Below, in pieces: positions 1,898-13,278 of a DNA stretch of 64,000 bases. The first letter of the stretch is position 1. Every line of letters starts with the position of its first letter. Source of the stretch: an uncultured Chloroflexia bacterium (lineage in GTDB: Bacteria; Chloroflexota; Limnocylindria; Limnocylindrales; CSP1-4); assembly GCA_963748625.1 (NCBI GenBank), contig CAVVJT010000007.1, forward strand, positions 320,001 to 384,000, read 5' to 3'. A model generated the notes under the pieces. The model ran no database searches. It was not told where the DNA came from and worked only from the letters and a program-made list of their open reading frames with translations. The translations under genes and the position numbers were made by a program.

Positions 1898-2647
1898 CTA
1901 CATCATCACCAGGCCGCCGTCCACCGCGAGCACCTGGCCCGTGATGTACGCCGCCTCGTCAGAGGCGAGGAACGCGACCGCGTTGGCGATCTCCTCGGTC
2001 GTGCCGAAGCGGCCCAGCGGCGTGCGCTCGGTGATCTGCGCCATGAGGGCCTCGGGCAGATCCTGTGTGAGCTCGGTGAGGACGAACCCCGGGGCAACGG
2101 CATTCACCGTGATGCCGCGCGACGCGAGTTCCCTGGCGGCGGCCTTCGTGAGGCCGATCAGGCCGGCCTTGGCGGACGAGTAGTTGGCCTGGCCCATCTG
2201 GCCGGCCTGCCCCGAGACGGACGTGATGTTGATGATCCGTCCGCTGCGGGCCTTGAGCATGGGGCGGGTCACGGCCTTGAGCGCCCAGAACGCACCGGAG
2301 AGGTTCGTCTCCAGCACGTCGATCCACTCGTCGGCGCCCATCCGCATGATGAGGTTGTCGCGCGTGATGCCGGCGTTGTTGACCAGGATGTCGATCTTGC
2401 CGAAGGCCTCCAGCACGGCCTTGACGAGCGCCTCGGCGCCCGCCTGCTCCCGGGCATCGGCCTGGACGGCCAGCGCCTTGCGGCCCAGGGCCTCGACGGC
2501 CGCGACCACCTCGCCGGCCGCGGCGGCATTGCCCTTGTAGCTGAACGCCACATCGGCGCCCTGCGTGGCGAGGCGCAGGACGATCGCCCGGCCGATGCCC
2601 CGCGAGCCTCCGGTGACGAGTGCGGTCTTGCCGGTCAGGTCGATCAT
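1898..2647 (-). CDS. fabG: 3-oxoacyl-ACP reductase
   Basis: Start MIDLTGKTALVTGGSRGIG; NNAGITRD, GQANYSSAKAG (YxxxK), NAVAPGF; fab operon context. Confidence 0.95.
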   Translation of the reverse strand: MIDLTGKTALVTGGSRGIGRAIVLRLATQGADVAFSYKGNAAAAGEVVAAVEALGRKALAVQADAREQAGAEALVKAVLEAFGKIDILVNNAGITRDNLIMRMGADEWIDVLETNLSGAFWALKAVTRPMLKARSGRIINITSVSGQAGQMGQANYSSAKAGLIGLTKAAARELASRGITVNAVAPGFVLTELTQDLPEALMAQITERTPLGRFGTTEEIANAVAFLASDEAAYITGQVLAVDGGLVMM

Positions 2648-2664
2648 GGGACGGTTCCTCGGGT

Positions 2665-3855
2665 TCAGCGGAGGTGGGCGTGCTCGGGCTCGCCGGGCAC
2701 GACGTCGGAGAGGTCCAGGTGGCCGGGCAGCGGGCGGTCGAGCACCTCGGCGAGGACCGCCGGGATGGGATCCACGGAGTCCCGGTTCAACGGCAGCCTG
2801 ACGTGGACATCCTCGGGGCGGACGGCGTCGTCGGCGTCGCGCCCCCGAGCCGGGTCCGCCGTCCACTCGAGGGCCACGGCCCCCGACGTGAAGCCGGCCC
2901 CGAAGGCGACGAAGACGAGCTTGTCGCCAACCCGCACGCGCCCCTCGTTGACCGCCTCGGCGAGCGCGATCGGCACGGACGCCGCGGACGTGTTGCCGTA
3001 GCGGTGGAGGTTCACGTAGATCTTGTCCATCGAGAGGTCGAGGCCCTTGGCCACCGCCTCGATGATCCGCATGTTCGCCTGGTGCGGGATGATCAGGTCC
3101 ACGTCGTCCTGGGTCCAGCCGGCCTTGCCGACCGCGGCCAGCGCGGTGGAGGCGAGCGTCCGGGTCGCGAACCGGTACGTCTCCTTGCCCTCCATCCGGA
3201 TCTTGTGCTCCTTGCGGTCGATCGTGCCGGAGGACGGCGGGCTCGCGGACCCCCCGGCGGGCAGCCAGATCATGTAGGCGCCCTGGGGATCGGTGGTGAG
3301 CTCGATGCCCACGGTGGATGTCGGCTCGTCGGTGGCCGAGAGGACCACGGCGCCCGCGCCGTCGCCGAAGAGGATGCAGGTGCCCCGGTCCTCGTAGTCG
3401 AGGAAGCGGGTCAGCAGCTCCGCGCCGATGACCAGGACATGGTTCGCCATCCCGGCCTGGAGGTACGCGGTTGCCGTCGAGTAGGCGAAGACGAAGCCCG
3501 AGCAGGCCGCCGACACGTCGAACGCCGGCGCCCGGGTGTTGCCGATCGCCTCCTTGACCAGCGCCGCGGTGGAGGGCATCCAGTAATCCGGCGTCAGCGT
3601 GGCAAGCACGATCAGGTCGATGTCGTCGGGAACGAGGCCGGCCGTGTGGATGGCCCGCAGGCCGGCGACCGCGGCCATGGAGGCCGTGGTCTCGTCCCGT
3701 CCGGCGACCCGCCGCTCGCGGATGCCGGTGCGGGTGACGATCCACTCGTCGGAGGTGTCCACCATCCGCTCGAGGTCCGCGTTCGTGAGCACCTGCGCCG
3801 GGGCGTAGCGGCCCCAGCCCGTGAGCCGGACGGCGCGGGTGGGTGCGCCGGTCAT
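2665..3855 (-). CDS. fabH: beta-ketoacyl-ACP synthase III, with a C-terminal extension
   Basis: DTSDEWIVTRTGIRERR, AACSGF, ILFGDGAGA, PHQANMRII, GNTSAASVP, FGAGFT. Confidence 0.95.
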   Translation of the reverse strand: MTGAPTRAVRLTGWGRYAPAQVLTNADLERMVDTSDEWIVTRTGIRERRVAGRDETTASMAAVAGLRAIHTAGLVPDDIDLIVLATLTPDYWMPSTAALVKEAIGNTRAPAFDVSAACSGFVFAYSTATAYLQAGMANHVLVIGAELLTRFLDYEDRGTCILFGDGAGAVVLSATDEPTSTVGIELTTDPQGAYMIWLPAGGSASPPSSGTIDRKEHKIRMEGKETYRFATRTLASTALAAVGKAGWTQDDVDLIIPHQANMRIIEAVAKGLDLSMDKIYVNLHRYGNTSAASVPIALAEAVNEGRVRVGDKLVFVAFGAGFTSGAVALEWTADPARGRDADDAVRPEDVHVRLPLNRDSVDPIPAVLAEVLDRPLPGHLDLSDVVPGEPEHAHLR

Positions 3856-4427
3856 GCGGGCTCCACCTCGATCAGCGGGCTCTTCGCCTTGACCAGGGCG
3901 CCGTTCTCGGCACAGATCCGCACGACGCGCCCGGCAAGGTCGCTCTTGATCTCGTTGAACAGCTTCATGGCCTCGATCAGCCCGATGATCTGGCCGACCG
4001 ACACGTGGTCGCCCACCTTGACGTACGCCGTGGCTCCGGGGGAGGGGGCGCCGTAGTAGATGCCGGTGAGCGGCGCCTTGACGGAGGGCTTCACGGCCGC
4101 CGGTGCAGCGCTGGCTGCAGCAGCCGCGTGCGCCGCCGTCGAGGGGGCGTGCATGAGGGCTGTGGCGGCCTCGTGCGGGCCTGCCTCCGCGGCGGCGACC
4201 GCCGCGACGACGGGCCGCTCCAGCGATGCGGCGGAGCGCAGGATCACGGTCGTCCCGCCCGCGGTGACCTCCAGCTCGCCGAGGTCGCTCTTCTCGAGCA
4301 CGGCGGCGAGCCGGTCCACGAGGGCCAGGAGCGACGCGTCGCCACCGGCCGCGGCGCTCGCAGCCTGGCTGACCTCGCGCTGGCCGTCCTCGGCGGGCTC
4401 CTCGCGCGGTTCCTGCTGCTCGCTCAT
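3852..4427 (-). CDS. accB: Acetyl-CoA carboxylase biotin carboxyl carrier protein (biotinylatable copy)
   Basis: LGELEV N-terminal motif, Ala-rich linker, APLTGIYYGAPSPG thumb, IEAMKLFNEI biotin lysine motif. Confidence 0.92.
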   Translation of the reverse strand: MSEQQEPREEPAEDGQREVSQAASAAAGGDASLLALVDRLAAVLEKSDLGELEVTAGGTTVILRSAASLERPVVAAVAAAEAGPHEAATALMHAPSTAAHAAAAASAAPAAVKPSVKAPLTGIYYGAPSPGATAYVKVGDHVSVGQIIGLIEAMKLFNEIKSDLAGRVVRICAENGALVKAKSPLIEVEPA

Positions 4428-5695
4428 GCGTCCCACCTCCGGAAGACCAGGGCGGTGTTCTGGCCGCCGAACCCGAACGAGTTGGACATCGCGACGGGGA
4501 TGTCGCGACGGGCGGCCGAGCCGGGCGTCAGGTCGAGGCCCTCGGCGTAGTCGTCGGGATTCTCCAGGTTGAGCGTGGGCGGCACCACGCCGTCGCGCAT
4601 CGCCAGGATGGTGACGATCGCCTCCACCGCACCCGCGGCACCCAGCGTGTGCCCCAGCGCGGACTTGGTGGCGGTGACCGCGACGGCACCGGCGTGCTCG
4701 CCGAAGATGGTCCGGATCGCCTGCAGCTCCGCCTTGTCGCCCTCGGGTGTGGAGGTGGCGTGGGCGTTCACGTGCAGGACCTCGGACGGGTCGATCCCCG
4801 CCTTCGCCAGGGCCTTGCGTGCCGCGCGCACCGCGCCGATCCCGCCCGGGGCCGGCAGCGTGATGTGGGAGGCGTCGGCGGTGGCCCCGTAGCCCACCAG
4901 CTCGGCGAGCGGGGTCGCCCCACGGGCCTCGGCATGCTCGAGCGCCTCGAGCACCACGACCCCGCAGCCCTCGCCCAGCACGAAGCCGTCGCGGCCCTTG
5001 TCGAACGGGCGCGAGGCGCGCTCGGGGGCGTCGTTGCGGGTGGAGAGCGCCTTCATCGACGAGAAGCCGCCGACCGTCGCCTCGTGGACGCCGGCCTCGA
5101 CCCCACCTGCGAGCATCACGTCCGCGTCGCCGCGGCGGATGGTCTCCCAGGCCTCGCCCAGCGCGTGGCCCCCCGTCGCACAGGCCGAGACCGTGGCGAA
5201 GTTCGGACCGATGGCCCCGGTCGCGATCGCGATCTGCCCGGCGCCGACGTTGGAGATGCCCATCGGGATGAAGAAGGGGCTGATCCGGTCCGGGCCCTGC
5301 TCGCCCATCTTGAGCACGTTGTCGAACAGCGTGTGGACGCCCCCCAGGCCGGAGCCAAGGATCACGCCCGTGCGCTCGGCCAGCTCGTCCTCAAGCCGCT
5401 CCGGAAGGCCAGCCTGGTCCATCGCCTGGCGCGCGCACACGAGGCCGAACTGGATGTAGCGATCCGTCCGGCGCATCTCCTTGCGATCGAGGACGGCCGA
5501 CGGGTCGAAGTCTTTCACCTCGCCGGCGATCTTCGAGTCCACCCGGGCAGGGTCGAACTGCGCGATCACGGCGACGCCGGAGCGGCCCGCGACGAGCGCC
5601 TCCCACGTTGTGGCGACGTCGTTGCCCAAGGCCGACACCATGCCCATGCCCGTGACGACGACACGCCGCGGCTGCAGCGGCCAGGACCAGCTCAT
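4424..5695 (-). CDS. fabF: beta-ketoacyl-ACP synthase II
   Basis: RRVVVTGMG, SACATG, ASRPFDKGRDGFVLGEG, NAHATST, KSALGHTLGAAG, SNSFGFGGQN; ATGA overlap with upstream stop. Confidence 0.95.
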   Translation of the reverse strand: MSWSWPLQPRRVVVTGMGMVSALGNDVATTWEALVAGRSGVAVIAQFDPARVDSKIAGEVKDFDPSAVLDRKEMRRTDRYIQFGLVCARQAMDQAGLPERLEDELAERTGVILGSGLGGVHTLFDNVLKMGEQGPDRISPFFIPMGISNVGAGQIAIATGAIGPNFATVSACATGGHALGEAWETIRRGDADVMLAGGVEAGVHEATVGGFSSMKALSTRNDAPERASRPFDKGRDGFVLGEGCGVVVLEALEHAEARGATPLAELVGYGATADASHITLPAPGGIGAVRAARKALAKAGIDPSEVLHVNAHATSTPEGDKAELQAIRTIFGEHAGAVAVTATKSALGHTLGAAGAVEAIVTILAMRDGVVPPTLNLENPDDYAEGLDLTPGSAARRDIPVAMSNSFGFGGQNTALVFRRWDA

Positions 5696-6438
5696 CGGAC
5701 CAGCTTCCCCGTGCGGACGGTGGCGGCGCGGTAGACATCGCCAGGCAGGCCCCGCGCCGAGATCGCATTGGCGACCGGGAGCACGTCGTAGGGCGTGCGC
5801 TTGATCTCCGCGGTCACGTTGCCCTCGTGGATGTCCACCATCGCCCAGGATGCGGTCGGGTCCCCGTCGAACACGTAGCCCGCCGACCCGGCGTTGACGA
5901 TGACCTTCCAGCCGAGGTCGCGGACCTCGGGCACGTGCGTGTGGCCCACACAGATCACGCGGGCGTCGGTGCCGGCGGCCCGTTCGAAGATGATGTTGGC
6001 GTCGAGCGCCTGGTCGAAACCGCGGGTCTGGGACCCGGGCGATCCGTGGACCACGAGGACCAGGGTGTCGTCCACGGTGCGCATCCGGCGCTCGGCCGGG
6101 AGGCGGCGGAGCCAGTCCAACTGGGCATCGCCCAGCTCGTCGTGCGCCCATTCGGCAGCCGCCGTGACGATCTCGGGGACCCCGTCCTGGTACTGCGGGA
6201 ACGCGGCGCCGTAGTCGAAGTCACCCACGGCGATATCCGTGTTGCCCGACACGATCAGCGCACCTTCGGACTCGAGGAAGCGCAGGGCGTCCACGCAGCC
6301 GTTGGGATCGGGCCCGTTGAGGACAAGGTCCCCCGCCACCAGCACGCCGTCGGGCTTGATGCGCCGGATCTCGGCGGCAACCGCCTCGAGGGCGGCCAGG
6401 TTGCCGTGGATGTCGGAGAGGACGGCGATGCGGGTCAC
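5692..6438 (-). CDS. Calcineurin-like metallophosphoesterase (YfcE/MJ0912 type)
   Basis: SDIHGNLAALEAV, GDLV, GNTD, HGSP, GHTH, NAGSAG motifs. Confidence 0.88.
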   Translation of the reverse strand: MTRIAVLSDIHGNLAALEAVAAEIRRIKPDGVLVAGDLVLNGPDPNGCVDALRFLESEGALIVSGNTDIAVGDFDYGAAFPQYQDGVPEIVTAAAEWAHDELGDAQLDWLRRLPAERRMRTVDDTLVLVVHGSPGSQTRGFDQALDANIIFERAAGTDARVICVGHTHVPEVRDLGWKVIVNAGSAGYVFDGDPTASWAMVDIHEGNVTAEIKRTPYDVLPVANAISARGLPGDVYRAATVRTGKLVR

Positions 6439-6556
6439 TGGGCCACCTCCCGGGCCTGCCAGGACGGTGCAGCGCAAGGCGGAGCCGAGCACCGGAGCGA
6501 GCGCACCCGCAGGTGCGTGAGCGAGGAAGCGGAGGCGACAACGCCGCGATGTGCCG

Positions 6557-7072
6557 TCATCGCAGGACCCCGGCCGGAGGGATGATGAAGGAGAGGAGGC
6601 CCTCGCAGGCCACTTCCCCATCGACCGTCGCGACGCCGCGGCCCTTGCCGAAGCGGCTGCCGAGCTTCTCCATCGTGATCTCGAGGCGGAGCACATCGCC
6701 CGGCACGACGACCCGCTTGAACCGGACGTCGTCGATGCCGGCGAACAGCCCGATCCTGTCGCCGAAGCCCGGCTGGTTCGCGACGTAGCAGGCCATGACC
6801 TGGGCGAGCGCCTCCACCTGGAGGACGCCCGGCATCACCGGCAGGCCCGGGAAGTGGCCCCCGAAGAACCACTCGGTCGCGGTGACGGCCTTGATGCCGA
6901 CGATGCGCTTGGCTGCCGGCTCGTACTCCACGACGCGGTCAACGAGCAGGAACGGCCAGCGGTGCGGAATGAGGCTCTCGATCTGGCGGACCGAGAACGG
7001 CGCGGCCATCGAGGGCGCGGCTGCGTCGGGCGGCGAAGCGTTGGGCGAGGCGTCAGGCGTGGCGTCGGTCAC
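6557..7072 (-). CDS. fabZ: 3-hydroxyacyl-ACP dehydratase
   Basis: IPHRWPFLLVDRV, FFGGHFPGLPVMPGVLQVEALAQ, RFKRVVVPGD; start uncertain (7072 GTG or 7084 TTG). Confidence 0.94.
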   Translation of the reverse strand: MTDATPDASPNASPPDAAAPSMAAPFSVRQIESLIPHRWPFLLVDRVVEYEPAAKRIVGIKAVTATEWFFGGHFPGLPVMPGVLQVEALAQVMACYVANQPGFGDRIGLFAGIDDVRFKRVVVPGDVLRLEITMEKLGSRFGKGRGVATVDGEVACEGLLSFIIPPAGVLR

Positions 7073-7176
7073 GAGCGGCTCCAAGGGGTTGTCAGCGGGG
7101 GGAAGCGTGCGGGATCGGGGCGGCCACGGGCATGCGGGTCCGTGCAGGGCTGCACGTGCCGTGGGCGGCCCGGCGG

Positions 7177-7223
7177 ATCACGAGGACCGCTCCGCGGCGC
7201 ATCAAGAGGACCGCTCCGCGGCG
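7177..7223. repeat. 24-bp-period tandem duplication of the accC 3' end
   Basis: atcacgaggaccgctccgcggcg (7177-7199) versus atcaagaggaccgctccgcggcg (7201-7223). Confidence 0.8.
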
Positions 7224-8572
7224 GCCAGGAAGGCGGCGCTGCCGATGCGGTCCATGAGATTCGTGGTGAAGCGGCCTTCCAGGAAGGGCTCGGAGACGAG
7301 CAGTGCGCGGTGGATCGCGGTGTTGGTCACCACGCCCTCGATCACCAGCTCGCTCAGGGCGGCCTTGCCGCGGGCGATCGCCGCCTCGCGCGTGGGCGCC
7401 CAGACGATCAGCTTGCCCAGGAGCGAGTCGTAGTAGGGCGGGATCTCGTAGCCGGAGTAGGCGTGCGAATCGAAGCGCACCCCGGGCCCGCCCGGGGCGT
7501 TGAAGCGCTCGATGGTGCCCGCGCCCGGCCGGAAGTCGTGCTCGGGGTCCTCAGCGTTGATCCGGAACTCGATGGCGTGGCCATCCTGGCGGACGTCGGC
7601 CTGGGTGAAGCCGAGTGGCTCGCCGGCCGCGATCCGGATCTGGGTTGCCACGAGGTCGATGCCGGTCAGCATCTCGGTGACCGGGTGCTCCACCTGGATG
7701 CGGCAGTTGATCTCGATGAAGTAGGCGTTCCCGTCGTTGTCAACGAGGAACTCCAGCGTGCCCACGTTCTCGTAGCCCGCGGCGACCACCGCCTTGATGG
7801 CGCGGTCGGCGAGCGCCGCGCGCCCGGCCGGGGTCATCGCGGGGGATGGGGACTCCTCGAGGATCTTCTGGTGGCGGCGCTGGATGGAGCAGTCGCGCTC
7901 CCAGAGGTGCACGCCGTTCCCGTGCTGGTCCACGGCCACCTGGATCTCGACGTGGCGGTTGTCCTCCAGCCACTTCTCGAGGTACAGGGCGTCGTCGCCG
8001 AAGGCCGCCTTGGCCTCCGACCGGCAGATCGGCAGGACCGCGGCCAGCTCGCGCGCGGAGCGGACCATGCGCATGCCCTTGCCACCGCCGCCCGCGGAGG
8101 GCTTGAGCAGGACGGGATAGCCCACGCGCTCCGCGGCCTCGAGGGCGTCGGCCTCGTCGGCCAGGAGTCCAGAGCCGGGGACGGTCGGCAGGCCGTGGGC
8201 GGCCAGCAGGCGGCGCACCTCCTCCTTGGAGGCGAACCGCTCGAGGACGCCCGCCGACGGGCCGATGAAGGTGAGGCCATGGGCGCGCACCGCGTCGGCG
8301 AAGGCGTCGTCCTCCGAGAGGAAGCCGTAGCCCGGGTGGATCGCGTCACAGCCGGTGACCAGGGCGGCCGAGATGACGGCCGGCGCCGAGAGGTACGAGC
8401 GACGCGCGTCCGCGGGCCCGATGCAGATCGCCTCGTCGGCGAGGAGCGCGGCCAGCGAGTGGCGGTCGGCCTCGGAGTAGGCCACGACGGCCTCGATGCC
8501 CAGCGTGCGGCAGGCGCGCAGGATGCGCAGCGCGATCTCGCCCCGGTTGGCGATGAGGACGCGGCTGATCAC
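7202..8572 (-). CDS. accC: Acetyl-CoA carboxylase biotin carboxylase subunit
   Basis: LIANRGEIALR, IHPGYGFLSE, GGGGKGMR, ERDCSIQRRHQK, RIQVEHPVTE, YYDSLLGKLI. Confidence 0.96.
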   Translation of the reverse strand: MISRVLIANRGEIALRILRACRTLGIEAVVAYSEADRHSLAALLADEAICIGPADARRSYLSAPAVISAALVTGCDAIHPGYGFLSEDDAFADAVRAHGLTFIGPSAGVLERFASKEEVRRLLAAHGLPTVPGSGLLADEADALEAAERVGYPVLLKPSAGGGGKGMRMVRSARELAAVLPICRSEAKAAFGDDALYLEKWLEDNRHVEIQVAVDQHGNGVHLWERDCSIQRRHQKILEESPSPAMTPAGRAALADRAIKAVVAAGYENVGTLEFLVDNDGNAYFIEINCRIQVEHPVTEMLTGIDLVATQIRIAAGEPLGFTQADVRQDGHAIEFRINAEDPEHDFRPGAGTIERFNAPGGPGVRFDSHAYSGYEIPPYYDSLLGKLIVWAPTREAAIARGKAALSELVIEGVVTNTAIHRALLVSEPFLEGRFTTNLMDRIGSAAFLAAAERSS

Positions 8573-9123
8573 GAGCCGCCCTCCTCGCTGCCGTCATCGT
8601 CGGGATCGTGGAGCTCCACGGGTGCCTCGACGGCGGCGATCTCCTCGCCGTACTCGACCGCCTCGCCGGTCTGGACGAAGACCTCCACGACGGTGCCGTC
8701 GATGGGTGCCACGACGTCCTGCGGGATCCCGAGGAGGTCCACCGTGGCGATCCGGTCGCCAGTGCGGACGCGGGCACCCACCTGCGCGATCGCCTTGAAC
8801 ACCCCGACGGTGGGGGCGGTGGCGACGCCGCGCTTGCGATCGCTCGCGGGGGTGGTGGCGGCATGCGGCACGGTCGGGCGTTCGGCCGCGACCGGCGCGT
8901 TGGGCCGGGCGCGCTCGCTCCGCCTGGCAGCCGGCGTCGCGTGGGGGGTGCGGCGGAGCCGGATCCTCCAGTCGCCCTCGTGGATCTCCAGCTCGCCCAG
9001 GCCGGACGTCGAGAGCTTGGCGACAAGGGCCGGCACGAGGGTGTCGGAGAGATGGGCGAGCGAGGCATGGTCGGCCTGCCGGTCTGCGGCGGTCCGGTCG
9101 CTCAGGTGGCGCGGTTCGGGCAT
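8569..9123 (-). CDS. BCCP-like biotinyl/lipoyl-fold protein lacking the biotin-accepting lysine (BADC-like)
   Basis: BCCP N-terminal motif LGELEIHEGDWRIRLRR; C-terminal APTVGVF...VDLLGIPQDVVAPIDGTVVEVFVQTGEAVEYG, where LLG replaces AMK; lies between accA and accC. Confidence 0.85.
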   Translation of the reverse strand: MPEPRHLSDRTAADRQADHASLAHLSDTLVPALVAKLSTSGLGELEIHEGDWRIRLRRTPHATPAARRSERARPNAPVAAERPTVPHAATTPASDRKRGVATAPTVGVFKAIAQVGARVRTGDRIATVDLLGIPQDVVAPIDGTVVEVFVQTGEAVEYGEEIAAVEAPVELHDPDDDGSEEGGS

Positions 9124-9126
9124 CGG

Positions 9127-10167
9127 CTAGGCGTCCTCGGGGTCTTGGTCGTCGGTCCTGCGGCCCACCTGGAGCGGGGCCGGCAGGCTGCGCGCACCGG
9201 CCTCGAACAGGCCGCGGATGCGGTCGGTGAAGCTTGGCCGCGACGGGATGGTCGGGGTGGTGGGAGGCACCGGCACGGCGATCTCGTCGTACGGCCCAAG
9301 GGCCCGGTAGCGGCGGTACCGCATCTCGAGCAGCTCGTCCACGGGGATCGCACCCAGCCGGTCGAGCTCACGCACGATGGCAGCCTTGAGGCGGCGGGCA
9401 GTCTCGGGGACGTCGGTGTGGGCGCCGTCGGGCGGCTCGGCGATGACCTCGTCCACGACGCCAAGCGCCTGCTGGTCGCCGGCACTCATGCGCATTGCGA
9501 GCGCGGCGGTCGCGGCCTCATCGGTGGTCCGCCACAGGATGCTCGCGCAGCCCTCCGGGGAGATGACCGAGTAGACGGCGTTCTCGAGCGCGAGCACCAC
9601 GTCGCCCACGGCGATCGCGAGCGCGCCGCCCGAGCCGCCCTCGCCGGTGATCACGGTCACGATCGGCGTGCGCAGGCGGGTCATGAGGCCCACGGAACGG
9701 GCGATGGCCTCGGCGATGCCGCGCTCCTCGGACTCGGGGCCGGGATGGGCGCCGGGCACGTCCACGAACGTGACGACCGGGAGGCCGGAGCGCTCGGCGA
9801 GCTCCATGATCCGCATCGCCTTGCGGTATCCCTCCGGATGGGGCATGCCGAAGCTGCGCCGGACGTTCTCCTCGGTGTCGGCGCCCTTCTGCTGGCCGAT
9901 GACGGCCACCCGGTGGCCGCCGATGCGGGCGAACCCGGCGACGATGGCCTCGTCATCACCAAAGACGCGATCGCCGTGGAGCTCCACGAACTCGTCGGCC
10001 ATGACGGCGAGGAGCTCGAGGATCCGCGGCCGGCGCAGGTTCCGTGCGAGCTGGACCCGGCTCCAGACCTCGGCCTTGCGGTCGGCGGGCTCGGCTTCGG
10101 GGCTGGGCGCGTCGGTCGTGTCGGGCGCGGCGGTGGCGTCGCGGCCCCGCAGGAGGCGGTCAACCAC
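9127..10167 (-). CDS. accA: Acetyl-CoA carboxylase carboxyltransferase alpha subunit
   Basis: ELHGDRVFGDD, FGMPHPEGYRKAMR, EERGIAEAIA, GEGGSGGALA, YSVISPEGCASILW; GTG start overlaps accD stop. Confidence 0.95.
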   Translation of the reverse strand: MVDRLLRGRDATAAPDTTDAPSPEAEPADRKAEVWSRVQLARNLRRPRILELLAVMADEFVELHGDRVFGDDEAIVAGFARIGGHRVAVIGQQKGADTEENVRRSFGMPHPEGYRKAMRIMELAERSGLPVVTFVDVPGAHPGPESEERGIAEAIARSVGLMTRLRTPIVTVITGEGGSGGALAIAVGDVVLALENAVYSVISPEGCASILWRTTDEAATAALAMRMSAGDQQALGVVDEVIAEPPDGAHTDVPETARRLKAAIVRELDRLGAIPVDELLEMRYRRYRALGPYDEIAVPVPPTTPTIPSRPSFTDRIRGLFEAGARSLPAPLQVGRRTDDQDPEDA

Positions 10168-11011
10168 GGGTGGCCTCCACGGGCTGGGGCGCGAGGAAGC
10201 GCAGGATCTGGGCGAGCTCCGGGCGCAGGTCGGCGCGAGTGACGACGCGATCCACGAAGCCATGGCGGTAGAGGAACTCGGAGCGCTGGAACCCGGGTGG
10301 CAGCTCCTGGCCGATGGTGCCCGCGCCCACCCGCGCGCCCGCGAAGCCGATCAGGGCGTTGGGCTCCGCAAGGTTGATGTCGCCCATGGCGGCGTACGAG
10401 GCGAACACGCCACCCGTGGTGGGGTCGGACATGATCGAGACGTAGGGCACCTTGCCGGCGCGCAGGCGCTCCAGGGCCGCCATGGTCTTCGCGAGCTGCA
10501 TCAGCGCCAGCGTCCCCTCCTGCATCCGCGCCCCGCCCGACGCGGAGACGATGACCAGCGGCACCCGTTCGGCAAGGGCGCCCTCGGCGGATCGGGCGAC
10601 CTTCTCGCCCACGACGGCGCCCATCGAGCCGCCCATGAACCCGAAGTCCATCACCAGGATGGCGATCCGCTGGCCCTCGATGCGGCCGAAGCCCCAGACG
10701 GCGGCGTCGCGCAGGCCCGTGGCGACCTGGGCGGCCGCGACGCGATCGGGGTACGGCTTCTGGTCCACGAACCCGAGCGGGTCCACGGACACCAGCCCCG
10801 GGTCACGCTCCTCGAAGGTCCCCTCGTCGAGGAGCTGGCCGAGGCGGGCGGTCGCCGGGAGGCGGAAGTGGTGCCCGCAGGACGGGCACACGTGCATCGC
10901 CTTCTCGAGCGCCTTGTTGAACAGCTGCTCCTGGCACGAGGGACAGCGGGTCCACATCTTCTCGGGGAAGCTGTCCCGGCGGGACCGGAACTGCGGGAAG
11001 TTGACGGGCAT
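10160..11011 (-). CDS. accD: Acetyl-CoA carboxylase carboxyltransferase beta subunit
   Basis: Zn finger CPSC...CPSC, FMGGSMG, SGGARMQEG, LMQLAK, PTTGGV, IGFAGARV. Confidence 0.96.
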   Translation of the reverse strand: MPVNFPQFRSRRDSFPEKMWTRCPSCQEQLFNKALEKAMHVCPSCGHHFRLPATARLGQLLDEGTFEERDPGLVSVDPLGFVDQKPYPDRVAAAQVATGLRDAAVWGFGRIEGQRIAILVMDFGFMGGSMGAVVGEKVARSAEGALAERVPLVIVSASGGARMQEGTLALMQLAKTMAALERLRAGKVPYVSIMSDPTTGGVFASYAAMGDINLAEPNALIGFAGARVGAGTIGQELPPGFQRSEFLYRHGFVDRVVTRADLRPELAQILRFLAPQPVEATRG

Positions 11012-11622
11012 CAGGCAGGGCCTCCAAGGCCGGCTCCGGCGAGCGCCGCGTGGGCGGCCCGGCGGGCATGGGCGGTGCGGGCGGCGCGGCGCATGAGCGC
11101 CTCCGCGGTGCGGGCGTCGCCGTGGGCCGCGCGCCAGGCGACCCAGGCCACACCCACGATGGAGATGGCGGCAGAGGTGATCGCCGCGCCACCCACGACG
11201 TAAAGCGGGGTGCGGCTGGCGGTATCCCCGGCGGCGCGGGCGACGGCGTCCGCATCCGACGGGTCGAGCTCGCCGGTCAGGACGGCGGCGAGGAGCGGGT
11301 CGTCAAGGCGGCCGGGAGGTACGGCGCCCGGGAACGGGATGAGGGCGCCGCCGCCCACCGCCATGGCAGGAGCTGCCTGCGCGGCGGCCAGCTCGGCAAG
11401 GCGTCCGGCGAGGCGCTCCTCGAAGCGGAACGAGGGGTGGATGCGGACGAGCGAGGCCTGCAGGACGCGAGCGGCATGGCGGAGGCCGGGATCGAGAGCG
11501 GCGTCGGCAGGAACGTCCTCCGCGCGGCGCTCGGCCGCAGCGAGCAGATCCTCGAGGTAGCGATCGGCGACAAGGGCGTCGACCTGGTCTCCATCGCGGT
11601 CGGGCAGGCGCGGCACGGTCAT
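11011..11622 (-). CDS. Putative single-TM anti-sigma factor
   Basis: ATGA-coupled directly after an ECF sigma gene; N-terminal helical region (PSFRFEERL) and one TM segment followed by a short basic tail. Confidence 0.6.
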   Translation of the reverse strand: MTVPRLPDRDGDQVDALVADRYLEDLLAAAERRAEDVPADAALDPGLRHAARVLQASLVRIHPSFRFEERLAGRLAELAAAQAAPAMAVGGGALIPFPGAVPPGRLDDPLLAAVLTGELDPSDADAVARAAGDTASRTPLYVVGGAAITSAAISIVGVAWVAWRAAHGDARTAEALMRRAARTAHARRAAHAALAGAGLGGPA

Positions 11623-12329
11623 GCGCGGCTGCCCCGGTCCCGACCGGGCTGGGTGCCCCCGTCACGACGAAGCCCGGTGCCCCGGTCCCGGCTGAGCGCG
11701 GTGCCCCGGTCCCGCCCGAGCTCCTTGGCGACGGCCCCGAGCGCCCGGTGGATCAGGACGCGGACGGCGCCCTCGGACCTGCCCAGGACGCCGGCGATCT
11801 CCGCGGTGCTCATCTCCTCCACGAACCGCAGTTCCAGGGCGCGGCGCCGGTCGTCGGGCAGGGAGCGCAGCGCCCGCAGGGCCTCGGTGGCCTCGTCGCG
11901 GGTCACCGCGTCATGCTCCAGGTCCGTGGTGTCCGCGAGGGCGAGCCCCGCGCCGAGCGCGAGGTCCAGCGAGTCGGCGGGCTTGCGGTTGCGGGTCCGG
12001 CGCTCGTTGGCAATCACGTTGCGCGCGATCCGGAACAGCCACACGCGGAACGTGGAGGCCTCGGGGCCGTCCTCGGCGCGGGCCTGCTCCCGGAAACGCG
12101 GCAGCGCCGCCAGCGCCCGCAGGAAGGTCCGCTCGGTGGCGTCCTCCGCGGCGTGGTGGTCGGCGAGCTCGTAGAGCGCGAACGCATACACCTGGGCGAG
12201 GTACTTCCGGTACAGGGCGTCGAACTGGGCGGGGTCCCGGCGTGCCGCCTCCACGAGGCGCCGGTCGCGATCGAGCGCGACGACGCCCTCGCCGGCGCGC
12301 TCCTGCCTACCAAACACCGGGCGGACCAT
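11619..12329 (-). CDS. ECF-family RNA polymerase sigma factor
   Basis: Region 2: FDALYRKY...AEDATERTFLRA...FRVWLFRIARN; region 4: LPDDRRRALELRFVEEMSTAEIAGVLGRSEGAVRVLIHRA. Confidence 0.93.
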   Translation of the reverse strand: MVRPVFGRQERAGEGVVALDRDRRLVEAARRDPAQFDALYRKYLAQVYAFALYELADHHAAEDATERTFLRALAALPRFREQARAEDGPEASTFRVWLFRIARNVIANERRTRNRKPADSLDLALGAGLALADTTDLEHDAVTRDEATEALRALRSLPDDRRRALELRFVEEMSTAEIAGVLGRSEGAVRVLIHRALGAVAKELGRDRGTALSRDRGTGLRRDGGTQPGRDRGSRA

Positions 12330-12333
12330 CGCG

Positions 12334-13278
12334 TTACACCCCGTCCCGCTGGGCGGGCGTGTCCTGGTCGGCGGCGGCGTCCCCGCGGTCGGAGTCGGGC
12401 GGCGCGGCCAGGCGCACACGGACGACCTCGCCGGCGTGAACGTGGCGCTCCCCGCCCGGCACCTCGTCGTCGGCCAGGACCAGCGCGCCGCTGGAGCCGT
12501 CCACACCGAGAGCCGGCAGCGGCTCGGTGGCCGACCCGTCGGGTGCCTCGAGGGTCACCAGGCGTCCGGTGGTGACCTGGCGCCGCGTCCAGGTGTCCAC
12601 GTCGAACCAGCCGGCACGCAGGGCCTCGTGCCGGCCGGCCAGCCGGTCGGCGAACGCGTCGAACAGGGCGTCCCGATCGATCGGACGGCCGCCGGACGCC
12701 TCGCGCAGGCTCGTCATGGTGTGGGCGATGTCGGGCGGGAAGGCGTCCTGCGTCCAGTCGGTGTTGATCCCGATGCCCACCACCACCCGCGGGTTGTCGG
12801 TGCCCAGGCCATCGCTCTCGCCGAGGACCCCCGCGAGCTTCTGCAGCCGCAGCGGCGCGGCCAGGCGCTCGGAGGCCTCGTCGGCGGACAGGAGGCCCGT
12901 CAGCAGTGCGTTCGGCCCAGCGGTCTCGATCACGAGGTCGTTCGGCCACTTCAGGCGGATGGCGCCCTCGGGGAGTCCTGCGGTGTCCTCGGCGGCATCG
13001 CACATGGCGAGGGCCACCGTGGCGGCGACGCGCCAGGCGCGGTCGGGCGGGAGATACGCGGGCCGGAAGCCGAGCGAGCAGAGAAGCGCCGCTCCGGGGG
13101 GCGCCGTCCACGTGCGGCCGTGGCGCCCGCGCCCGGCGGTCTGCTCATCGGCGAGCGCGCAGCACACCTCGGGCGTGGCGTCGAGCAGCCACGTCCGCAC
13201 GATGTCATTGGTGCTGCCGGTGGACGGGTACCGCTCGACCCGGCTGAAGACCGAACCGCCGGCAGGAGCCTCGGTCAC
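12334..13278 (-). CDS. birA: Biotin--protein ligase (no N-terminal HTH, class I)
   Basis: TGSTND, ADEQTAGRGRHGRTW, LKWPND, KLAGVLGE, VVGIGIN, AGEV. Confidence 0.92.
   Translation of the reverse strand: MTEAPAGGSVFSRVERYPSTGSTNDIVRTWLLDATPEVCCALADEQTAGRGRHGRTWTAPPGAALLCSLGFRPAYLPPDRAWRVAATVALAMCDAAEDTAGLPEGAIRLKWPNDLVIETAGPNALLTGLLSADEASERLAAPLRLQKLAGVLGESDGLGTDNPRVVVGIGINTDWTQDAFPPDIAHTMTSLREASGGRPIDRDALFDAFADRLAGRHEALRAGWFDVDTWTRRQVTTGRLVTLEAPDGSATEPLPALGVDGSSGALVLADDEVPGGERHVHAGEVVRVRLAAPPDSDRGDAAADQDTPAQRDGV

Follow-up and report, generated by a model that had tools for sequence, protein, structure and literature searches.

The heteromeric acetyl-CoA carboxylase (ACC) of bacteria is regarded as an enzyme of four genes and serves as a target both for antibiotics and for engineering. 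In the literature that could be searched, look-alikes of the biotin carboxyl carrier protein (BCCP) which carry no biotin are described only for plant and algal plastids, and the portions available of the papers on these BADC proteins propose that they bind biotin carboxylase (BC) and/or BCCP, their role being disputed between that of an inhibitor and that of an assembly factor or 'glue' (PMC11926652; PMC7212373). A full-text search of the literature, whose reach did not extend to two key plant papers, found no bacterial BCCP without the acceptor lysine and returned only papers on plant BADC. This work concerns a gene, referred to here as X, that is carried by a 64,000-nucleotide stretch of DNA (the window; positions 320,001 to 384,000 of contig CAVVJT010000007.1, assembly GCA_963748625.1) from an uncultured bacterium of the phylum Chloroflexota (class Limnocylindria, hereafter the class). 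X is a non-biotinylatable paralogue of BCCP which lies within the ACC operon, beside a true accB gene, and its product is probably a functional fifth component of the enzyme. The parts of X and the genes that define its position are listed below in window coordinates.

8569..9123, minus strand: X, lysine-less BCCP paralogue of 184 amino acids (aa), based upon its open reading frame (ORF), a PF00364 match, full-length alignment to Escherichia coli BCCP, its fold and a conserved family
8953..9090, minus strand: X residues 12-57, N-terminal helix and beta-hairpin, AccB-like (GLGELEI..GDWRIRLRR), from the AlphaFold model
8833..8952, minus strand: X residues 58-97, linker rich in Pro, Ala and Arg, with low predicted local confidence (pLDDT)
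8626..8832, minus strand: X residues 98-166, biotinyl-type barrel-sandwich domain without a thumb, pLDDT about 97
8719..8742, minus strand: X hairpin V128-D-L-L-G-I-P-Q135, in which L131-G132 (8728-8733) replace the Met-Lys of carriers
8647..8658, minus strand: VEYG motif of X, V156-E-Y-G159, conserved and a predicted contact with AccC
7202..8572, minus strand: accC, biotin carboxylase, with three BC domains (NF006367, 639 bits, cut-off 597)
9127..10263, minus strand: accA, carboxyltransferase alpha subunit (PF03255, 1.4e-110, residues 65-323), its exact start in doubt, as about 100 nt of the ORF overlap accD
3852..4436, minus strand: accB, lysine-bearing carrier (IEAMKLFNEI, thumb PSPGA; TIGR00531, 111.5 bits)

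The ATG of X stands 3 nt past the TAG stop of accA (spacer CCG), with GAGGA 10 nt upstream of it, and its stop, TGA, shares the sequence GTGA (8569-8572) with the GTG start of accC. The lysine-bearing accB is found 4.1 kb downstream of X, flanked by fabF and fabH. The first-pass annotation of this DNA, which had been made from the sequence alone, placed X between accA and accC with an overlap of the accC start, and the true accB about 4 kb downstream; both statements agree with the readings given here.

The presence of a biotinyl (barrel-sandwich hybrid) domain in X is indicated by a PF00364 match of 30.1 bits (cut-off 22.1). Against the BCCP profile TIGR00531 the protein aligns over profile positions 8-155, and its score of 51.3 bits falls below the cut-off of 115.2, against which the true AccB of the window scores 111.5 bits. 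X also aligns end to end, N-terminal part included, with the E. coli BCCP 4hr7_B (E 9.5e-11, query 24-166), and in this alignment VDLLGIPQDV of X stands opposite VEAMKMMNQI of E. coli, while an 8-residue gap in X corresponds to the missing thumb of ACC-type BCCPs. The AlphaFold model, which was built on an alignment of 45 sequences, consists of a helix (residues 12-40), two strands (44-49 and 52-57), a linker that is disordered (62-94) and the domain at 98-166; among its Foldseek matches 1bdo comes first (TM 0.77 on the target, root-mean-square deviation 1.7). Residues 12-57 align with the N-terminal parts of both the AccB of the window and E. coli BCCP. In the linker, pLDDT stays under 50 over residues 62-72 and 74-94, and the orthologues differ in its length and sequence. 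The ORF, the PF00364 match, the alignment to 4hr7_B and the model thus agree with the earlier observation of a BCCP architecture whose hairpin, VDLLGIP, is without an acceptor lysine. As Leu-Gly replaces the acceptor Met-Lys, X cannot be biotinylated; and as it fails the tests of lysine, thumb and profile cut-off alike, it does not count functionally as a BCCP. In one sequence source, proteins of the X family bear the annotation biotin carboxyl carrier protein. A part for X as a lipoyl or GcvH protein was rejected, there being no lysine and such matches lying under their cut-offs.

In comparison with the described systems, X resembles plant and algal BADC in being a BCCP homologue without the biotinyl lysine that occurs beside a true BCCP in a heteromeric ACC. 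It differs from plant BADC in that it is bacterial, is encoded in an operon between accA and accC, belongs to a Chloroflexota-wide clade and has no thumb; for the hairpin of plant BADC, the first-pass annotation quotes a DQFG-like sequence. With canonical AccB (TIGR00531; 4HR7, 1BDO) it shares the three-part architecture, the fold, a V-E-[YF] sequence near the C-terminus and predicted docking on a BC helix, but it is without the acceptor lysine and the thumb, and it scores below the profile cut-off. Plant BADC has in X its closest bacterial analogue, which would work in a like manner. In the available portion of one paper, a parallel to BADC is drawn with the epsilon or 'glue' subunits that actinobacterial acyl-CoA carboxylases have (PMC11926652). 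The likeness of X to these small non-catalytic subunits, which aid assembly of the biotin carboxylase complex, is one of concept. The epsilon subunits are not known to be related to X in sequence or fold. Lastly, the ACC paper on Chloroflexus describes, in the part available, a fused BC-BCCP that has the lysine and is a different protein from X (PMC11077971).

The replacement of Met-Lys by Leu-Gly is highly conserved. A word-indexed protein search with X yielded 660 proteins at E <= 1e-3, and all of the best 120 of these (55-100% identity) have Leu-Gly at this position. An HMM (hidden Markov model) search of 1.84 billion cluster representatives gave 139 clusters at E <= 1e-30; among the best 150 representatives of 50%-identity clusters, 147 have Leu-Gly, two of the three exceptions ending before the hairpin and the third, a protein of 546 aa, reading MM. 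All 45 sequences of the family alignment have L131 and G132; V106, G107, V156, E157 and G159 are likewise invariant, with Y158 nearly so; L29, E44, E46 and V47 are invariant or nearly invariant; and no lysine column in these 45 sequences is invariant or close to it. The ratio of nonsynonymous to synonymous substitution (dN/dS) for X is 0.15-0.37 over eight orthologue pairs, with the linker included (accC, 0.04-0.13), and none of the 12 best X matches among the genomes of the class has a stop codon inside the match. X is hence under purifying selection. The first-pass annotation had raised the prospects that close homologues retain Met-Lys, this copy being a decaying duplicate, and that purifying selection is absent, and neither was found. 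The only X-like matches in the ESM Atlas are Chloroflexota and Armatimonadota clusters that carry PF00364, and two source names for close X homologues read 'Candidatus Limnocylindrales'.

Within the class, X was matched in 195/201 genomes and the lysine-bearing AccB likewise in 195/201, with both matched in 190/201; without nine genomes that are flagged as unpublished, the corresponding numbers are 188/192, 186/192 and 183/192. The X profile was also matched in all 46 class genomes that were sampled for it. Synteny was compared in 27 loci from four families (f1-f4). In f1, all 12 loci have X between accA and accC. Both f2 loci have it placed with a fused accD-accA gene on one side and accC on the other, and in f3 the copy of X that comes after accA is more divergent. 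Of the eight f4 loci, six show a gap of about 950 bp between X and accC, one (L017) shows none, and in L018 the gap is unreadable, with accC in pieces. The gap in L013 (4904-5854, minus strand), the one locus checked, is fabD (TIGR00128, 287 bits). All 27 X orthologues from these loci carry the L-G hairpin, and all 14 AccB sequences from sampled class loci carry EAMKLFNEI.

Some further features of these loci may be mentioned. The f4 gaps in L014, L015, L016, L021 and L022 are like that of L013, as judged by size only. In L018 (genome G102), accC at 3513-5560 (minus strand) is in four pieces in different frames, for which frameshifts or assembly errors are possible. In f2, whose genomes are small (1.0-1.4 Mb), accD-accA is one fused ORF of 679 aa (L019, 6598-8634, minus strand; L020, 6617-8623, minus strand), with the accD match at residues 37-298 and the accA match at residues 372-637.

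Elsewhere in the phylum, profile matches of 70-98 bits are a mix of lysine-less and lysine-bearing proteins. Outside the class the profile score alone cannot separate the two kinds of BCCP, both of which score 56-99 bits, so that the profile tally of 174/401 does not give the number of lysine-less genes. When 20 loci outside the class were examined, 14 proved to be lysine-less (hairpin LG in eight, LN in four, LA in one and LR in one) and six lysine-bearing. A scan of named genomes, for which an 8-sequence alignment was used and whose pattern (VEYGQP) biases which BCCPs are recovered, kept 80 loci, 24 of them lysine-less. Named carriers of a lysine-less gene are Thermogemmatispora aurantia, T. 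tikiterensis, T. carboxidivorans and Dictyobacter arantiisoli, with the hairpin E-A/S-L-N-V. In all three genomes examined outside the class, T. carboxidivorans among them, a lysine-bearing accB is present beside the lysine-less gene in the genome and is located directly after fabF, as it is in the window; in five genomes with a lysine-bearing BCCP of the VEYGQ type, by comparison, none of 11 TIGR00531 matches is lysine-less (0/5 genomes).

The relationships of these proteins were examined in an unrooted tree, computed by maximum likelihood from an alignment with 79 rows and 158 columns, from which the five hairpin columns had been removed. In this tree, the 36 Chloroflexota lysine-less rows lie on one side of a branch with a UFBoot (ultrafast bootstrap) value of 96 and an SH-aLRT value of 96, and 13 fabF-linked AccBs lie on one side of another branch (99/98). 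X falls within a clade of BCCPs without the lysine, the members of which come from several Chloroflexota classes. The interpretation offered in the first-pass annotation, which had seen a BADC-type paralogue in this one operon, was sound in recognizing a conserved non-biotinylatable BCCP paralogue within the ACC operon beside the true accB. Its description of the enzyme as BADC-type regulated goes beyond the present data, in which a regulator and a constitutive scaffold would look alike, and it was too narrow, since X is one member of a lysine-less clade found across the phylum. Three of the 24 lysine-less loci come from other phyla or are unassigned. Lysine-less BCCP-like genes outside Chloroflexota are seen in L108 and L139 ('bacterium' metagenome-assembled genomes, MAGs) and L117 (an Armatimonadia MAG), with the hairpins V-M-G-V and S-M-N-I. 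As they sit among lysine-bearing BCCPs in the tree, their losses of the lysine appear to be separate. In the Armatimonadota loci L083 and L098 the BCCP hairpin reads S-L-K-V-P, with the lysine kept and Met changed to Leu.

A possible site of action for X is provided by modelling of its complex with AccC, which gave ipSAE values of 0.80, 0.80 and 0.81 as compared with 0.00 for the best of three controls; the mark used for such models is reached by 116/157 solved complexes and by 2/215 mismatched pairs. The runs had at least 53% of contacts in common, and the pLDDT of the partner was at least 67. On the X side the modelled interface consists of residues 105-108, 130-131, 133 and 155-160, and on the AccC side of residues 34, 49-53, 59, 64-65, 67-69, 71-73 and 98. 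The contact residues of X coincide with the invariant columns of the family (V106, G107, L131 and VEYG at 156-159). Binding to AccC, on which the first-pass annotation had made its proposal depend, is thus predicted by a controlled model. According to the part available of one source, E. coli BCCP in 4HR7 binds the BC helix 64-73 (10.64898/2025.12.30.697075); the portion available of another reports that in active E. coli ACC tubes BCCP is at that non-catalytic BC site, beside the N-terminus of AccD, and that the alpha/beta/beta motif at the N-terminus of BCCP is predicted to oligomerise (PMC11160672). In the model, X has this same N-terminal motif. V106 and E-Y-G at 157-159 are kept both in X and in the other lysine-less Chloroflexota proteins, whereas the fabF-linked, lysine-bearing AccB has T at position 106 (10/13) and K/R-A/R-x at 157-159, its thumb being kept.

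Based upon these results, we favour the view, to which we assign a probability of roughly 0.6, that X is a non-catalytic fifth subunit of ACC that docks on BC and is analogous to plant BADC. Under this proposal, the biotinyl-like domain of X would dock at the non-catalytic BCCP site of biotin carboxylase (helix 64-73) by way of V106/G107, the L131 hairpin and VEYG at 156-159, and its AccB-like helix-hairpin would co-oligomerise with the N-terminal domain of AccB. The two jobs of an ancestral BCCP would in this manner be split between two proteins, with docking and assembly falling to X as an oligomerising anchor docked on BC, and AccB keeping the thumb and the biotin and swinging between BC and carboxyltransferase (CT). 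We put forward more tentatively, as somewhat less probable than its opposite, the broader proposal that several classes of Chloroflexota run a five-subunit ACC which arose by subfunctionalisation of BCCP, where X, of single origin, would have kept the BC-docking surface and the oligomerising N-terminus and lost biotin, and the fabF-linked paralogue would have kept biotin and the thumb and lost the docking motif.

A number of considerations weigh against this reading. The AccC and X pair resembles the solved E. coli BC-BCCP complex 4HR7, and because of this the result of the model may reflect likeness rather than binding. The division of labour between X and AccB is read from residue patterns, and from sequence a scaffold role of X would look the same as that of an inhibitor. 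The VEYG motif in the canonical comparison set is present by construction, that set having been recovered via the VEYGQP pattern, and the VEF of E. coli is the only canonical comparison independent of it. A single ancient loss of the lysine is supported but not proven, given that an unrooted tree of short proteins underlies it. The genomic context outside the class is also different: no accC match was found within 4 kb of the BCCP-like gene in any of the 20 loci outside the class, which makes the sharing of an operon with accC a peculiarity of this class. Furthermore, where ORFs of these loci were scanned against Pfam (106/137, with L046 left out), the lysine-less gene lies directly after efp (pepP-efp-X-like) in 5/6 scanned loci of other classes. 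The pepP-efp-X arrangement is seen in L043, L044, L047, L048 and L060, with xseA next in L043, L047 and L048.

Of the other explanations, the one that survives best, although we consider it unlikely, is that X regulates ACC negatively by competition, in line with the inhibitor model of plant BADC, occupying BCCP site(s) on BC and lowering ACC activity in accordance with the X:AccB ratio. X is predicted to dock where BCCP docks, it cannot carry biotin, and plant BADCs are described as inhibitors that displace BCCP in the available part of a review (PMC7212373), which nevertheless also presents the opposite, assembly-promoting model. However, in the window X is translationally coupled to accC and forms one operon with the catalytic genes, which implies a fixed stoichiometry rather than an adjustable dosage, and X is universal in the class. 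Additionally, the docking residues retained in X are gone from the lysine-bearing AccB, so that the two proteins may not compete for the site on BC. We think that a constitutive anchor or assembly role for X is more likely than a purely inhibitory one.

It is less likely still, and in our view improbable, that X acts outside ACC catalysis, whether as a transcriptional autoregulator through its N-terminal domain, as a partner of a fused BC-BCCP carboxylase, or as a decoy or target of a PII-type regulator. The available portions of the sources discuss the N-terminus of E. coli AccB as an expression regulator (PMC11160672) and report that plant PII binds BADC (PMC12706156). The genome has only two BC genes, accC and one fused to its own biotinyl domain, which could provide such a partner, and no acc gene adjoins the lysine-less gene in five loci of other classes. 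Against these points, the most conserved residues are on the biotinyl-like domain at the predicted contact with AccC rather than in the N-terminal part alone, and across the class X is tightly embedded between accA and accC. That X is a decaying or neutral accB duplicate without function, as the loss of the catalytic lysine and the low BCCP score might suggest, is very improbable, and this pseudogene reading was rejected, as the Leu-Gly that replaces the lysine is itself invariant, the gene is free of internal stop codons in its best matches and under purifying selection, and the lysine-less clade spans several classes.

The remaining genes of the region are as follows.

12334..13278, minus strand: biotin-protein ligase, birA-type, upstream and in the same orientation (TIGR00121, 96.7 bits, cut-off 83.1)
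11619-12506, minus strand: sigma factor of ECF (extracytoplasmic function) type, with Sigma70 r2 and r4
11011-11622, minus strand: ORF of 203 aa, no Pfam or NCBIfam match, its end abutting or overlapping the accD start
10160..11011, minus strand: accD, carboxyltransferase beta subunit with zinc ribbon (PF01039 and PF17848)
6557..7084, minus strand: fabZ, downstream of accC (PF07977, 4.5e-31)
5692-6450, minus strand: YfcE-like metallophosphoesterase, between fabZ and fabF
4424..5707, minus strand: fabF, directly upstream of accB (TIGR03150, 576 bits, cut-off 493.75)
2665..3855, minus strand: fabH, directly downstream of accB (TIGR00747, 397 bits, cut-off 292.1)
1898-2650, minus strand: fabG

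The order of genes along the minus strand is thus biotin-protein ligase, sigma factor, 203-aa ORF, accD, accA, X, accC, fabZ, phosphoesterase, fabF, accB, fabH and fabG. The ECF sigma factor and the 203-aa ORF, which lie just upstream of accD, may be a sigma/anti-sigma pair that is co-transcribed with the ACC operon. The biotin-protein ligase gene upstream of accD is kept in f2 and f4 loci, and the YfcE-like phosphoesterase gene is kept in f2 with 50% identity (L019, 3515-4321; L020, 3534-4340). The genome also contains a third small ORF with a biotinyl domain (G000:C4:624150-624413, minus strand), which matches TIGR00531 with 43.5 bits in its C-terminal part only. Among sequencing runs, a search listed none of RNA and, of DNA, only ones with a small share, which has no bearing on whether X is expressed.

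The observations that are new in this work are the phylum-wide clade of lysine-less BCCPs, the coexisting fabF-linked accB, the predicted contact with AccC on invariant residues, and the loss of the docking residues from AccB. A conserved bacterial counterpart of BADC would change the annotation of ACC subunits. With simple operon genetics, clear invariant contact residues and close relatives in cultured strains, such a counterpart would make the BADC-type question testable in vitro. If the five-subunit reading is true, these bacteria would provide a cultivable counterpart of plant BADC (Thermogemmatispora, Dictyobacter), and its study could settle whether 'dummy carriers' of this kind assemble or inhibit ACC.

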